A stretch of DNA of 64,000 bases from a phage (GCA_025830695.1 GCA_025830695.1_4111.2); one strand, 5' to 3'. Counted from the first letter of the stretch, positions 35,675 through 53,231 are shown. Made by a program: numbers and translations. Notes: generated by a model not told the origin, from the sequence alone.

Positions 35675-35682
35675 GCTGGTGG
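35675..35682 (+). other. Chi-like octamer GCTGGTGG in hairpin CCACCAGC-TTGT-GCTGGTGG
   Basis: Exact octamer; complement forms other hairpin arm. Confidence 0.5.
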
Positions 35683-35859
35683 GTTCCCTCTAACAGTATT
35701 CAGTACTACATGATAGTCTTCATCCTCCTAGGGTAACATAGTGAGGGCTATGATGGCAGTACTGAATACTCCCTTTCAAAAGATAGATCTATGGTATAGT
35801 ACTGACGGATTTTGGGCGTAGTTACCCTGGATGGATTTTGGACGTAGATATGTCTAGCC

Positions 35860-35990
35860 CTCCAGAAGTCTGGAAGTAAAGATGGCTATCCATCTAGACG
35901 GCTAAACGGCTAGATTTCTGGATGGCTAGACGTTTGGACGGCTAAACGGCTAGATGGTTACACGTCTGGAAGTATAGACGGCTAAATCAA
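35860..35990. repeat. iteron-like direct repeats (GACGGCTAAACGGCTAGAT x2 plus partials)
   Basis: Exact copies at 35897-35915 and 35937-35955; partial at 35977. Confidence 0.6.
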
Positions 35991-36139
35991 AATTTTATTT
36001 TGTTTTTTCCAATAGTTCCCCTACCGCGTGGGGATAGTTTCCCCGCAGTATCTGGAGTTAGATTTTTCTGAATCTGGAATCATTATCTTATAAACTGGGG
36101 GCAATGTCAACGGTCTGGACGGATATTTTTAAAAATTTT

Positions 36140-36440
36140 TTCAGTACTGAATTTTGGGCGTAACTATGCACCCGGTGGGCTTGAGTCTTTCTCGACTTGA
36201 TGGAACTATTATACAGTACTGGAAAAATAAAGCAATACCCTGGAAGCAAAAAAGTTTTAATTAATTTGCTTGCTATCCTGGGCCGGACTATGGTACTATA
36301 TTTCAGTACTGAGAAAGTGCGTTTACCTGCTAGGGTGCGGGAGTGTATCCTTTTTTTATATCTTGAATTTTGGGCGTAATTCCGCACCCCCTGGGGTATC
36401 CGCTTTCTCGCGTCTATGTAGTAATTATACGCTTTTTCAG
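36140..36440. repeat. two ~90-bp repeat units (ATTTTGGGCGTA...GCACCCGGTGGG...CTTGATG...CAGTACTGG)
   Basis: Units at ~36146-36235 and ~36366-36440; read as minus-strand promoter-leader modules. Confidence 0.5.
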
Positions 36441-36731
36441 GATCAAGTCAATACCTAAAAACAAAATAATTGAAAATAATTTAACGCGTTTAAACGGCCC
36501 GTAAAGCCCTGGAATGATTGGAATGGTGCAAATGTATAGCTTAGGTGTATTAATGCGTTAGAATGCGTCTGAGGCCGTTTTACGGGGTATCGGGATGATT
36601 TGGTGGATTGATTCAGTACTGAATAATAGTACTCCTATATAGAAAGATAGTTCCCCTGGATGGTTGCAGTACTGAATGACAGTTCCCCTATATAGAAAGA
36701 AAACTATTTTAAAAGTACATGTAGAAAGTAC

Positions 36732-36790
36732 TTGCAAACTATGTTTAAAGGCGTATAATGTTTTACATCGAGAGCGGGAACTCTTCCCGC
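36732..36790 (+). promoter_or_regulatory. PeSL-like cassette (TTGCAA-16-TATAAT + stem-loop)
   Basis: TTGCAA 36732-37, TATAAT 36754-59, hairpin GCGGGAA-CTCT-TCCCGC. Confidence 0.65.
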
Positions 36791-36814
36791 TACACTTTAA
36801 GAGAGATTAATACG

Positions 36815-37177
36815 ATGGCGACTCAAATCACTAAAATCATGCTTAACCTGGTAAACTTCCGCGAAGAGATGAAAGGTCTTCCGGCTGAAACTGTAAAAAT
36901 TCACATTGCAGCTTATCGGGAACTTATTGCAATGTTACCGCTTAAGCGTGAACAATACGCCGCTACTTTGATGCTTGATTCAATGATCCATGTAATGATC
37001 TCAAATGATTTGACGATGGTTTATCAGTACATGGGCGAAAATTTCGCGGTGTGTAGTAAACCAGTACCAGGGATGGCAACTACTGAGGAATTGCACGGCT
37101 TAAACTTAAAACAAGATGCATGGGATAATATGCCTCGTTTCCTGGTATGGGCTGACAGTGGCAAAATTTACAAATAA
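36815..37177 (+). CDS. hypothetical protein (120 aa)
   Basis: ATG after AAGAGAG SD; track ORF is promoter-derived extension. Confidence 0.6.
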   Translation: MATQITKIMLNLVNFREEMKGLPAETVKIHIAAYRELIAMLPLKREQYAATLMLDSMIHVMISNDLTMVYQYMGENFAVCSKPVPGMATTEELHGLNLKQDAWDNMPRFLVWADSGKIYK

Positions 37178-37191
37178 GTTTAATAAAGTAC

Positions 37192-37250
37192 TTGCAAACT
37201 ATGTTTAATGGCGTATAATGTTTTACATCAGGTGGGGAATAGTTCCCCAC
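37192..37250 (+). promoter_or_regulatory. PeSL-like cassette
   Basis: TTGCAA 37192-97, TATAAT 37214-19, hairpin GTGGGGAA-TAG-TTCCCCAC. Confidence 0.65.
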
Positions 37251-37270
37251 TATATAAGAGGATTAAAAAA

Positions 37271-37510
37271 ATGGCTAAATCAAAAATGTTCTTAGGTCAC
37301 AAAAACAAAACTCATTGGAATGTAAGCCTTTGGATTAATAACGATGAATCATTATACCGGTTGGCCCAGGACTTTATTAACGATAGCACTAATCGCAATG
37401 ATGCGGCCCGTCATATGATGTTATTTTTAGAACAGACTGGACAAGATAAAACACCGGACGGATTCAAATATAGCACTACTGCGATCCGTGCGGCGATGGT
37501 TGGAATGTAA
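37271..37510 (+). CDS. hypothetical protein (79 aa), paralog of 38509
   Basis: ATG after TAAGAGG SD. Confidence 0.6.
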   Translation: MAKSKMFLGHKNKTHWNVSLWINNDESLYRLAQDFINDSTNRNDAARHMMLFLEQTGQDKTPDGFKYSTTAIRAAMVGM

Positions 37511-37595
37511 TAGAATTTATTTAAAGTACTATCATTTTTTGCGATAGTACTTTATAATAGTGTTTTATTCATACACCAACGATAAGGGCAACAGC

Positions 37596-37859
37596 ATGAA
37601 TATTAAGTATTTTGCGACGCGTGAACAAGCTCGGATCGCCGCACGCCAGGACGGGGCAACGTTTAAAGATATGGGCGTACAATCGGAACGTGGTAAACGT
37701 TGGGCCATTGTAAAGCGTAGTACAGCCAGATCATTACAGTACTGGCTATCAGCTTTAAAAAGTCCTGCTAGTGTATCGCGACGAGTGGTAGAAATAAAGC
37801 TCGACCGTAAGGGGAATCGTGTTACCGTGTACCGTACTAAAAAGATAGCAGTACTATAA
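37596..37859 (+). CDS. hypothetical protein (87 aa), paralog of 48929
   Basis: Shared FATRE..ARI.AR and DRKGNRVTVY motifs. Confidence 0.55.
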   Translation: MNIKYFATREQARIAARQDGATFKDMGVQSERGKRWAIVKRSTARSLQYWLSALKSPASVSRRVVEIKLDRKGNRVTVYRTKKIAVL

Positions 37860-37867
37860 AAAAAGTA

Positions 37868-37926
37868 CTTGCAAACTAAGTTTAAAAGCGTATAATACTT
37901 TATATCAGGTGGGGAATAGTTCCCCA
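37868..37926 (+). promoter_or_regulatory. PeSL-like cassette
   Basis: TTGCAA 37868-73, TATAAT 37890-95, hairpin GTGGGGAATAGTTCCCCAC. Confidence 0.65.
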
Positions 37927-37946
37927 CTAAAGCAAGGAGTAAAAAA

Positions 37947-51835: not shown

Positions 51836-51896
51836 TTGCATTGTAGTTAGATTAACGTATAATGTTTTACATAGAGCGGGGGAATAGTTCTCCCGC
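51836..51896 (+). promoter_or_regulatory. PeSL-like cassette
   Basis: TTGCAT 51836-41, TATAAT 51858-63, hairpin GCGGGGGAATAGTTCTCCCGC. Confidence 0.65.
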
Positions 51897-51914
51897 CAGT
51901 CCGGGAGATACACC

Positions 51915-52181
51915 ATGAACACTATCGAAATCACTATCAATGCACACGTATACGACAACGTAGTACTGCAAACTACTATGACCGCTAATGATACCAGTAC
52001 TTTGCGGAATACCGTTGTAAGTGCTGTATGTGCTGCAATCGGTGATGTAGCCCTGGAAAATGCAGAACACATCAACAACGGTTTCACTATGTGCAAACGT
52101 GATAACGCAAAACATATCATCTTAGAAGGTTACGGCGGTGTAGAATATAATCTTTATATGAAAAAAGTACTTGCAAAGTAA
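51915..52181 (+). CDS. hypothetical protein (88 aa)
   Basis: GGGAGA SD. Confidence 0.6.
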   Translation: MNTIEITINAHVYDNVVLQTTMTANDTSTLRNTVVSAVCAAIGDVALENAEHINNGFTMCKRDNAKHIILEGYGGVEYNLYMKKVLAK

Positions 52182-52227
52182 CTAAAACAAAGTATAATGT
52201 TTTGCATAGGGGGAGATATCCTCCCCC
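52171..52227 (+). promoter_or_regulatory. PeSL-like cassette
   Basis: TTGCAA 52171-76, TATAAT 52193-98, hairpin GGGGGAGATATCCTCCCCC. Confidence 0.65.
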
Positions 52228-52245
52228 ACTAAAAGGAGTACTAAA

Positions 52246-52470
52246 ATGGCTAACTTTGATGAACTGATGCGGGAAGTAGCTAACCTGGCAGAAGAGAAGA
52301 AATCATTCGATTCTATCTATAACACCGCTCATCGTGATTCAGTACTGGCATGTACTCAGGATCAAAAAGATGAACTAATCGCCACATATCATGAAGCATG
52401 GAAGTACTACCGCCAATGGGAGAAAGAAGAAAGCGAGTCTACCATCAACGGCATCAATAATCTAATCTAA
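52246..52470 (+). CDS. hypothetical protein (74 aa)
   Basis: AAAGGAG SD. Confidence 0.6.
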   Translation: MANFDELMREVANLAEEKKSFDSIYNTAHRDSVLACTQDQKDELIATYHEAWKYYRQWEKEESESTINGINNLI

Positions 52471-52488
52471 AGTTTTATTTCAGTACTA

Positions 52489-52517
52489 TTGACATAGCTT
52501 GATAGTACTGATATGAT
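52489..52517 (+). promoter_or_regulatory. promoter (TTGACA-17-TATGAT)
   Basis: Upstream of 52546 gene. Confidence 0.5.
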
Positions 52518-52545
52518 AACTTTACTAACTACAAGGGGAAACATC

Positions 52546-52803
52546 ATGGAACAATTCACACAATATCGGGTAAATCCTCAAGCTATGGCCTACGTAGAAG
52601 ACCATAAAACGTTACCAGTACTGCAACCAGTTAAAGGCCATATCTATCGTGCGATGGCGTGGAGTACTGCCCAGGATGGCTATAAAACCGTTGCCGTTGG
52701 TATGTACTGCGGTAATGGTGAATGGTTTGATCCAAATAATCCGGTAGCAATTAACAGTACTGAAAAAATGAAATGGGCCGACTACATCGAAGATATTTCA
52801 TAA
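52546..52803 (+). CDS. hypothetical protein (85 aa)
   Basis: ATG after AAGGGGAAA. Confidence 0.55.
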   Translation: MEQFTQYRVNPQAMAYVEDHKTLPVLQPVKGHIYRAMAWSTAQDGYKTVAVGMYCGNGEWFDPNNPVAINSTEKMKWADYIEDIS

Positions 52804-52810
52804 AAACTAT

Positions 52811-52871
52811 TTGACAGTACTAACCAGTAATGTATAATGTTTTACATAGAGCGGGGGAATAGTTCTCCCGC
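52811..52871 (+). promoter_or_regulatory. PeSL-like cassette (TTGACA-16-TATAAT)
   Basis: Hairpin GCGGGGGAATAGTTCTCCCGC. Confidence 0.7.
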
Positions 52872-52893
52872 CAATAGTTTGGAGTAAAACATT

Positions 52894-53094
52894 ATGTCTA
52901 TCGCTCTCGCCCTGGTTGAAGTACTGAAAGAAGCTAAAGCCAACCTTATCGATGTACAGATTAAGGAATTGCAAAATGGTTTAATCGGCTGTACTTGTAC
53001 CGCTGGTGGAGCGGCAGACTATCGAGAACACGAATCACTAGAATCGTTGGTCCGGTATCTTACAATCATCGTAGAAGATTGGAGAATCATCTAA
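52894..53094 (+). CDS. hypothetical protein (66 aa)
   Basis: GGAG SD. Confidence 0.55.
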   Translation: MSIALALVEVLKEAKANLIDVQIKELQNGLIGCTCTAGGAADYREHESLESLVRYLTIIVEDWRII

Positions 53095-53111
53095 CAAAAA
53101 AGAATAAAAAA

Positions 53112-53136
53112 GGGATTGACTCCGGTCAGTCCCTTT
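53112..53136 (+). terminator. intrinsic terminator variant GGGATTGACTCCGGTCAGTCCC + TTTG
   Basis: Third copy of this variant. Confidence 0.7.
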
Positions 53137-53223
53137 GCTATTATATACGCATAGACAAAAACTAGCCCACAGGGTGCATAGGTGTATCTAAAATATATAG
53201 TTAATAACGGTGAGTAACTATCT

Positions 53224-53231
53224 GCTGGTGG
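53224..53231 (+). other. Chi-like octamer GCTGGTGG
   Basis: Intergenic, downstream of conserved element at 53161. Confidence 0.45.

Follow-up and report, generated by a model that had tools for sequence, protein, structure and literature searches.

Chi Octamers in the Terminal Repeat of a Jumbo Coliphage and Their Probable Role at the Genome Ends

The terminal repeat and its early genes

The window analyzed here is a 64,000-nucleotide stretch of phage DNA (GCA_025830695.1) in which the octamer GCTGGTGG recurs, mainly between positions 35675 and 53231. The octamer is an exact 8/8 match to Chi, the recognition site of the enteric RecBCD enzyme. Judged by its relatives, which were taken from GenBank phage records, the source of the window is a jumbo coliphage of the Asteriusvirus group (121Q/PBECO4/phAPEC6). 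The top matches listed showed 90–96% identity over the aligning 31–66% of the queried 19 kb, with vB_Ec-M-J as the best match, and these closest relatives were isolated on E. coli. A search of IMG/VR with the acetyltransferase encoded in the region of interest yielded 121Q only.

The genome of vB_Ec-M-J has an annotated direct terminal repeat (DTR) of 21,525 bp (1–21525), and its two copies were confirmed to be identical. For fEgEco12, a DTR of 20,993 bp was determined by PhageTerm and restriction digests, and five phages of the group have repeats of ~20 kb (PMC13070987). Position 1 of vB_Ec-M-J and position 1 of fEgEco12 both align to position 35086 of the window, and the inner boundary of the DTR falls at ~54591. 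By homology to these phages with determined termini, the ~20-kb region 35086–54591 would represent the DTR, collapsed to a single copy in the window. The order in the window is right-hand unique DNA, DTR, and left-hand unique DNA. Both DTR junctions are thus crossed, and the window must therefore derive from an assembly or a circularly written record with the repeat collapsed to one copy. The interval marked in the initial annotation coincides with this repeat, a context that the annotation did not contain.

The DTR of the window encodes ~49 small open reading frames (ORFs) on the + strand, most of them with their own sigma-70-type promoter, and ten perfect TTGACA-N16/17-TATAAT promoters were found on this strand. 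Past the DTR boundary, the genes are tightly packed. Within the DTR, the ~1.7 kb adjoining the inferred left terminus are without a convincing gene. The 20 largest DTR ORFs were compared with the PHROGs, which yielded families of unknown function together with a DksA-like protein, an acetyltransferase, and a weak ligase-like match. No recognizable RecBCD inhibitor or member of the Gam family was found among these 20 ORFs, most of which have no assigned function. Two pairs of paralogues within the DTR share a PHROG, namely 42366–42689 and 48477–48833 (PHROG 6246) and 37596–37859 and 48920–49324 (PHROG 8127). The stretches with the ORFs 37208–37510 and 38509–38748 are each ~75% identical to the vB_Ec-M-J counterpart of the other, and some DTR genes have homologues at the DNA level in rV5-like phages (genus Phapecoctavirus). 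On both sides of the DTR, at 32800–34850 and 54600–61000, there are arrays of back-to-back paralogous ORFs of ~60–85 amino acids. In the relatives, the DNA just before the right DTR carries up to 14 paralogous genes of the "regulator of chromosome condensation"-like type, arrayed on the − strand. The GC skew of the window is negative at ~18000–34000 and positive over most of the remainder.

The early transcription units are stereotyped and consist of a consensus sigma-70 promoter, the sequence gttttacat after the −10 box, and a hairpin of the GGGGAGAAatgGTTCTCCCC type in the 5′-untranslated region before the ribosome binding site. A second recurrent element is the palindrome CAGTACTG, with 59 copies against 0.78 expected in the window (1–64000) and the highest density in 35086–54591; its core AGTACT occurs 275 times. 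AGTACT takes two fixed positions in early promoters, over the −35 box (AGTAC|TTGCAA or TTGACA) and abutting the −10 box (cAGTACTG|TATAAT). CAGTACTG is also the most enriched 8-mer of the terminal repeat of the Klebsiella phage Muenster (61 copies), and 8-mers containing AGTACT rank first in the early regions of the Salmonella phage SE_PL and the Serratia phage BF. A full-text literature search for an AGTACT-type motif in phages gave no result. The palindrome may be the operator of a dimeric regulator of early transcription.

Distribution of Chi octamers

In the window, GCTGGTGG was found 12 times, 10 times on the + strand and twice on the − strand. Dinucleotide shuffles gave a mean of 0.66 and a maximum of 3 copies, in line with the expectation of fewer than one copy in the initial annotation. 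No consensus is common to the sequences flanking the 12 copies, from which it follows that the octamer itself is the repeated unit. Although the DTR accounts for only 30% of the window, 11 of the 12 copies lie in 35086–54591 (P = 1.8e-5), seven of them intergenic and four in coding sequence. The excess over chance amounts to ~30–60-fold and is almost wholly within the terminal repeat, where one-mismatch variants of the octamer are essentially absent.

The whole genome of vB_Ec-M-J (378,573 bp) was assembled as a control, with expectations from Markov models of order 2–4. One copy of its DTR (21.5 kb) contains 9 + and 2 − sites, compared with 0.16–0.38 and 0.04–0.09 expected. The unique region (335.5 kb) contains 14 + and 9 − sites, where roughly 3–6 were expected on each strand. 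Chi is 7.4 times denser in the DTR (0.51/kb) than in the unique region (0.069/kb; P = 3e-6). With one site per 1.8 kb, the DTR is ~2.5 times denser in Chi than the E. coli chromosome (one per 4.6 kb), despite a G+C content of 38.6%. The 24 one-mismatch neighbors of the octamer were counted as well. They occur with a mean of 0.08–0.29 copies per DTR, compared with 7–14 for Chi, and in the unique region with a mean of 5.4 and a maximum of 15–21, compared with 14 and 9 for Chi. Chi is thus unremarkable outside the DTR and exceptional inside. The genome-wide enrichment that the initial annotation proposed to look for is absent outside the DTR, the 14 + and 9 − sites of the unique region being within the range of the neighbors, and the Chi signal is confined to the terminal repeat.

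The observation first made from the window was confirmed in part. All seven copies listed at that time exist, with the one given at 47934 starting at 47935. The list was incomplete, since the + strand copies at 47016, 50010, 51425, and 53002 inside the annotated interval and the one at 10710 outside it had been missed. The seven listed copies are intergenic as described; the five missed copies all lie within ORFs, four of them in frame as GCT-GGT-GGN (Ala-Gly-Gly) and the one at 50010 in the CTG-GTG frame. The placement in intergenic hairpins applies to three of the five intergenic loci (35663/35675, 45554, and 41529/41591), and hairpins are unconvincing at 47935 and 53224, which lie ~25–35 nucleotides upstream of promoter −35 boxes.

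The leftmost locus is a perfect hairpin at 35663–35682, CCACCAGC-ttgt-GCTGGTGG, which presents Chi in both orientations on an 8-bp stem with a 4-nucleotide loop (−16.4 kcal/mol). Its distance from the inferred left terminus is 577 bp, and its + arm at 35675 is, reading from the right DTR copy, the final + Chi ahead of the unique region. The hairpin is kept in phAPEC6, vB_Ec-M-J, fEgEco12, and SE_PL; in SP27 the + arm is lost (GTTGGTGG). The loop reads ttgt in the window and in phAPEC6 and the reverse complement acaa in vB_Ec-M-J and SP27, which looks like an inversion of the center of the palindrome.

The intergenic − copy at 41529–41536 has the active orientation for a RecBCD enzyme moving rightward from the left terminus, 6.4 kb away. 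121Q no longer has this copy (CCGTCAGC), and among the relatives the sequence directly 5′ of the octamer is variable while the octamer is retained. Together with the intergenic + copy at 41591–41598, which lies upstream of an early promoter and is kept in four of four relatives compared, it forms an inverted pair 54 nucleotides apart. The + copy at 45554–45561 is the 3′ arm of a terminator-like hairpin (45539–45564, −18.1 kcal/mol) directly after a stop codon. This hairpin contains no complementary Chi because its 5′ arm pairs via G-U wobbles. The copy is kept in all relatives compared, and in the SE_PL homologue of the hairpin a compensatory change has occurred outside the octamer (AGCCCAC/GTGGGCT to AGGCCAC/GTGGCCT).

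The two remaining intergenic copies are both on the + strand. That at 47935–47942 lies ~35 nucleotides upstream of a −35 box in a repeated terminator-promoter cassette; the relatives carry a 10-nucleotide indel two nucleotides 3′ of the octamer, which is intact. The copy at 53224–53231 lies ~25 nucleotides upstream of a TTGACA −35 box and is the + Chi closest to the inferred right terminus (1.36 kb). Here, the relatives differ by substitutions or indels just 3′ of the octamer, and again the octamer is retained. The cassette, present at 44150–44340, 47847–48025, and 53109–53300, consists of a terminator with a 12-bp stem (AAAGGGATTGACTCCGGTCAGTCCCTTT), followed by GCTATTATAT and a promoter. Chi is found in two of the three cassettes, at differing distances from the shared sequence, and the third is without it.

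All coding copies are on the + strand. Within the DTR, the octamer is read in frame as Ala-Gly-Gly at 47016–47023 (ORF 46917–47111, GCT GGT GGa), 51425–51432 (ORF 51368–51640), and 53002–53009 (ORF 52894–53094), the last being absent from 121Q, where the region has diverged. At 50010–50017 (ORF 49972–50214), the frame is tcG CTG GTG Gaa. The sole copy outside the DTR, at 10710–10717 in ORF 10551–10805, is also read as Ala-Gly-Gly and is probably incidental.

Selection on the exact octamer

Separate null models were applied to coding and intergenic DNA of the vB_Ec-M-J repeat. In its 53 annotated DTR genes, four copies were found against 0.43 predicted by synonymous-codon shuffling, an excess of ~9-fold (P = 0.0003). 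Its 7.5 kb of intergenic DTR sequence contain 5 + and 2 − copies, where 0.02–0.16 and 0.004–0.03 were expected. Among all 8-mers of the DTR, Chi ranks 20th by enrichment in the window and 5th to 32nd in the other DTRs. In the window DTR, it is outranked only by overlapping members of the AGTACT family, by −10 and −35 motifs, and by the hairpin motif of the 5′-untranslated regions.

These values bear on the possibility that the accumulation arose without selection, as a by-product of the G+C content of the DTR, a preference for GCT and GGT codons in Ala-Gly-Gly, G-rich hairpin stems, and duplicated cassettes. The G+C content is in fact higher in the DTR than elsewhere (38.6% versus 35.4%), three of the four DTR copies in coding sequence are read as Ala-Gly-Gly, two intergenic copies belong to paralogous cassettes, and each of the two − copies pairs with a + copy in a hairpin or an inverted repeat. 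However, Markov models of order 1–4 and dinucleotide shuffles predicted only 0.15–0.4 copies, the coding copies exceed the synonymous shuffle, and the one-mismatch neighbors are nearly absent. Moreover, the octamer does not hold a constant place in the cassettes, and it was gained independently in three other lineages, as described below. We therefore consider an origin without selection highly improbable. Acquisition of the DTR by horizontal transfer of E. coli-like DNA was rejected in view of the G+C content of 38.6% and the absence of the Chi neighbors, which are common in E. coli-like sequence.

The sites are also conserved. All 11 Chi sites were found at homologous positions in vB_Ec-M-J and phAPEC6. 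One site has been lost in SP27. Two have been lost in 121Q, counted within a 20-kb locus that does not include the 35663/35675 hairpin. Across four relatives, 1.4% of the intergenic octamer positions had changed, compared with 6.5% in the flanks (60 nucleotides on each side of the octamer), which corresponds to 4–5 times fewer changes (Fisher P = 7e-4, a value that is indicative only because the sequences are phylogenetically related). For the coding octamers, the difference was not significant (3.9% versus 7.4%). Two octamers have remained intact despite indels of 10–13 nucleotides within two nucleotides of them.

Similar clusters were found in three further phages. Muenster (Alcyoneusvirus) has an annotated terminal repeat of 20,030 bp with 7 + and 1 − sites and none in the next 20 kb. 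In SE_PL, a ~20-kb early stretch of individually promoted small genes contains 14 + and 1 − sites, followed by none in the next 17.7 kb. The first ~20 kb of BF (Eneladusvirus) contain 6 + and no − sites, compared with 0.15 expected, and the next 25 kb contain no + and one − site. The corresponding numbers for the window are 9 + and 2 − sites in the DTR (35086–54591) and one + site in the remaining 44.5 kb. The termini of SE_PL and BF were placed from homology or gene layout. Only three of the 15 SE_PL sites, namely both arms of the left-end hairpin and the 45554 terminator, and none of the eight Muenster sites are homologous to sites of the window, in a comparison that covered these two phages. 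The Chi cluster has been gained independently in the Salmonella and Klebsiella phage lineages, and probably in the Serratia phage lineage too. The hosts of all three presumably have RecBCD enzymes that recognize the same octamer. Four SE_PL copies (12299, 18338, 26330, and 28211) occupy the 16–17-nucleotide spacers between the −35 and −10 boxes of sigma-70-type promoters. An RNA-level role for GCUGGUGG was judged unlikely because these four copies lie upstream of the transcription start.

Alternatively, the octamer could be identical to Chi by coincidence and be recognized by some other factor tied to the repeat or to the early region. A transcription regulator of the phage or of the host would be an example, as would a signal used in packaging or in duplication of the repeat. 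The octamer is confined to a stretch that is both DTR and early sigma-70 region, two variables that are inseparable with the available genomes; nearly all copies are on the transcribed sense strand, and several stand beside promoters or in terminators. On the other hand, the match to Chi is exact at all eight positions in four lineages whose enterobacterial hosts presumably share Chi. The sites occupy coding frames, promoter spacers, UP-element positions, and hairpin arms, in no fixed register to promoters, start codons, or terminators, and they lack the flanking consensus usual for protein operators. The AGTACT family and the −10 and −35 boxes, in contrast, hold fixed promoter positions. We regard a site for another factor as unlikely. 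That the octamer was placed wherever sequence constraints are relaxed strongly indicates that selection has acted on the octamer itself. Because the enrichment is specific for the exact octamer, survives codon-aware and intergenic null models, is conserved, and has arisen in other lineages, the assignment as E. coli-type Chi in the initial annotation was borne out, and the octamer has very probably been selected as the Chi site of the host.

Chi and the genome ends

Chi acts only on RecBCD that approaches from its 3′ side (cited in bioRxiv 10.1101/2021.07.08.451572). With the termini placed by homology to phages with determined ends, the sites of the window have this geometry, with a double-strand end located 3′ of Chi. 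Nine + sites face the right terminus at distances of 1.36, 1.58, 3.2, 4.6, 6.6, 7.6, 9.0, 13.0, and 18.9 kb, and the left terminus has two − sites in the active orientation, 0.58 and 6.4 kb away. RecBCD recognizes Chi with a probability of 20–40% per encounter. If this range is assumed, 87–99% of the enzymes entering from the right end and 36–64% of those entering from the left end would be converted inside the repeat. The density of + sites increases to the right along the repeat. Of 34 independent sites, 24 fall into its right half (P = 0.012; Kolmogorov-Smirnov P = 0.025), in a test that used the inferred boundaries of SE_PL and BF. An orientation bias, as suggested in the initial annotation, is real (9:2 in the window DTR). 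Pooled over the window, SE_PL, and Muenster, the ratio of 28:3 differs from 1:1 (P = 2e-6) but remains within the ~4:1 predicted by strand composition (P = 0.11), and orientation therefore provides no independent evidence.

Host Chi sites were probably selected in the DTR to turn RecBCD that enters at the genome ends from degradation to RecA loading. RecBCD would load on a free end, either after injection or at the end of a genome or concatemer, and degrade inward. As the terminal 20 kb are duplicated, degradation of one end would cost no unique information. Within 0.6–1.4 kb the enzyme would reach a correctly oriented Chi and, before leaving the repeat, be turned from a destructive nuclease into a RecA loader, so that the end is preserved. 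The RecA-coated 3′ tail, lying in the repeat, could then invade the other repeat copy, which would lead to circularization of the genome or to concatemers and prime recombination-dependent replication. Essentially the same scheme was proposed for P1 by Subramaniam and Smith (bioRxiv 10.1101/2021.07.08.451572). The authors of the fEgEco12 study assume recombination between the repeats, with no mention of Chi or RecBCD, and report that virion DNA of this phage is cut as predicted by ordinary restriction enzymes (PMC13070987), so that the DNA is probably readable by RecBCD. The sequence comparisons show the localization, exact-octamer specificity, conservation, independent gains, and geometry relative to the termini. 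RecBCD would presumably act at these sites, and the benefit selected may be protection, recombination, or both. Taken as a whole, the interpretation given in the initial annotation is partly supported; the protection of phage DNA and stimulation of recombination that it proposed are suggested by RecBCD-Chi biology and the P1 precedent.

Several points weigh against a selected role at the genome ends. According to the annotation of vB_Ec-M-J, the relatives possess a UvsX/UvsY recombinase of their own, along with endonuclease VII and an SbcCD-like nuclease; Chi-rich lambdoid phages are typically without a recombination module of their own (PMC12315714). With only two sites facing the left terminus, one end is poorly served, and the strand bias is no larger than the composition predicts. 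The DTR is co-extensive with the sigma-70 early region, so that "repeat" and "early region" are inseparable as variables. Finally, the link to RecBCD is drawn from sequence, and the termini of the window phage, SE_PL, and BF are placed by homology or gene layout.

The octamers might also be genuine Chi sites that, as in the chromosome of E. coli, serve the repair of broken forks or of transcription-replication collisions, here in the very heavily transcribed early region and not at the genome termini. RecBCD entering at a collapsed rightward fork would find the + sites in active orientation, co-directional with all DTR transcription, and the density of strong promoters in the region is exceptional. 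Yet the remaining genome is replicated and transcribed as well and is unenriched, and the pattern ends near the DTR boundary in Muenster and at a matching change of gene layout in SE_PL and BF. The rise in density toward the terminus and the − copy 0.58 kb from the left end also suggest entry at the ends. Selection for fork repair is, in our assessment, quite improbable.

A more far-reaching form of the selection for Chi at the genome ends is possible, although we put it forward tentatively and find it doubtful. The 20-kb repeat as a whole might be a protein-free anti-RecBCD device, a sacrificial, Chi-studded, duplicated buffer that stops RecBCD, disarms the cellular pool, and seeds recombination. 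After Chi, RecBCD is without nuclease activity for some time, and a cell contains about ten RecBCD molecules. The pool could thus be disarmed in trans before the unique genome and the later replication and packaging ends are exposed, and the RecA-coated 3′ end would start recombination between the repeats despite the UvsX system of the phage. If the repeat does act as such a buffer, exposure of the right end to RecBCD would be expected from the strong + bias, which might in turn predict the direction in which the DNA enters. With fewer degradation products released by RecBCD, the acquisition of CRISPR spacers from the phage end would be limited as well.

Whether Chi is selected for recombination and protection or is a by-product of codon usage is a long-running argument, and direct selection has so far been proposed only for P1 and a few lambdoid phages. 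The present case is an unusually clean natural experiment, with an AT-rich genome in which Chi is expected to be nearly absent, a sharp repeat boundary, placements where the sequence is free, and four lineages. It extends the idea to virulent jumbo phages with their own recombinase and suggests a function for very long repeats, which are merely described in current papers. For phage-therapy candidates of the genus, it predicts dependence on host recBCD and one vulnerable genome end.

The closest known system is P1, which requires RecA and RecBCD. It has 50 Chi sites in 94.8 kb (~1 per 1.9 kb), most of them located in its terminal redundancy or close to it, and in the related phages P7, D6, and NGUA22 Chi is likewise clustered at the terminally redundant ends (bioRxiv 10.1101/2021.07.08.451572). 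As in P1, Chi in the window occurs far above expectation, at a similar density (11 sites in 19.5 kb, ~1 per 1.8 kb), is concentrated at the terminal repeats of the packaged DNA, and is frequent in non-coding DNA, and the role proposed is RecBCD-Chi-RecA recombination between terminal repeats. P1, however, is temperate and packages by headful from pac with variable ends, whereas the phage described here is a virulent myovirus of ~350–380 kb with a fixed-sequence 20-kb DTR. In P1, Chi is nearly randomly oriented over both strands and is the most frequent octamer, and the phage depends on host RecA and RecBCD. Here, ~80–90% of the sites are on one strand (9:2, and 14:1, 7:1, and 6:0 in the other lineages), Chi ranks behind promoter-associated motifs and is almost absent from the remaining genome, and the relatives are annotated with UvsX/UvsY.

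Phage LLS has one Chi per 1.86 kb, with 20 of 23 sites on one strand and active from the right end (Genome Res 2025, PMC12315714). The DTR resembles it in density (1 per 1.8 kb), in strand preference (82% on the + strand), in the increase toward the right end, and in an enrichment that runs counter to the local G+C content (for LLS, PMC12315714). In contrast to the jumbo phages, with their own recombinase and DTR-restricted Chi, lambdoid phages of the LLS type have no recombination module or anti-RecBCD function, cohesive or pac ends, and genome-wide Chi. T5 shares the long exact terminal repeat (10.2 kb), which holds pre-early genes transcribed by the host RNA polymerase and is comparable with the promoter-rich small genes found here. 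The left repeat of T5 contains two + Chi sites (8127 and 8689) and the next 20 kb none, which is too few to be informative, though in the same direction as in the jumbo phages. T5 is, to our knowledge, not known to rely on Chi.

The E. coli chromosome uses the same octamer under the same rule of approach from the 3′ side, with an orientation that follows the G-rich strand. Its Chi frequency largely reflects codon usage, with most sites in the CTG-GTG frame and a 13 times lower frequency in non-ORF DNA. In the DTR, by contrast, seven of 11 sites are intergenic, the coding sites are mostly in the GCT-GGT frame, and codon usage offers no explanation. A non-exhaustive full-text search yielded no mention of Chi or RecBCD for Asteriusvirus, RaK2-like, or other jumbo phages, apart from a RecD-like gene annotated in phage Sharanji. 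Chi, its protective and recombinogenic action, and Chi-rich phages such as P1 and LLS were known already. New is their combination here with a virulent jumbo phage, a fixed long DTR to which the sites are restricted, a bias toward one strand, and a recombinase of the phage's own.

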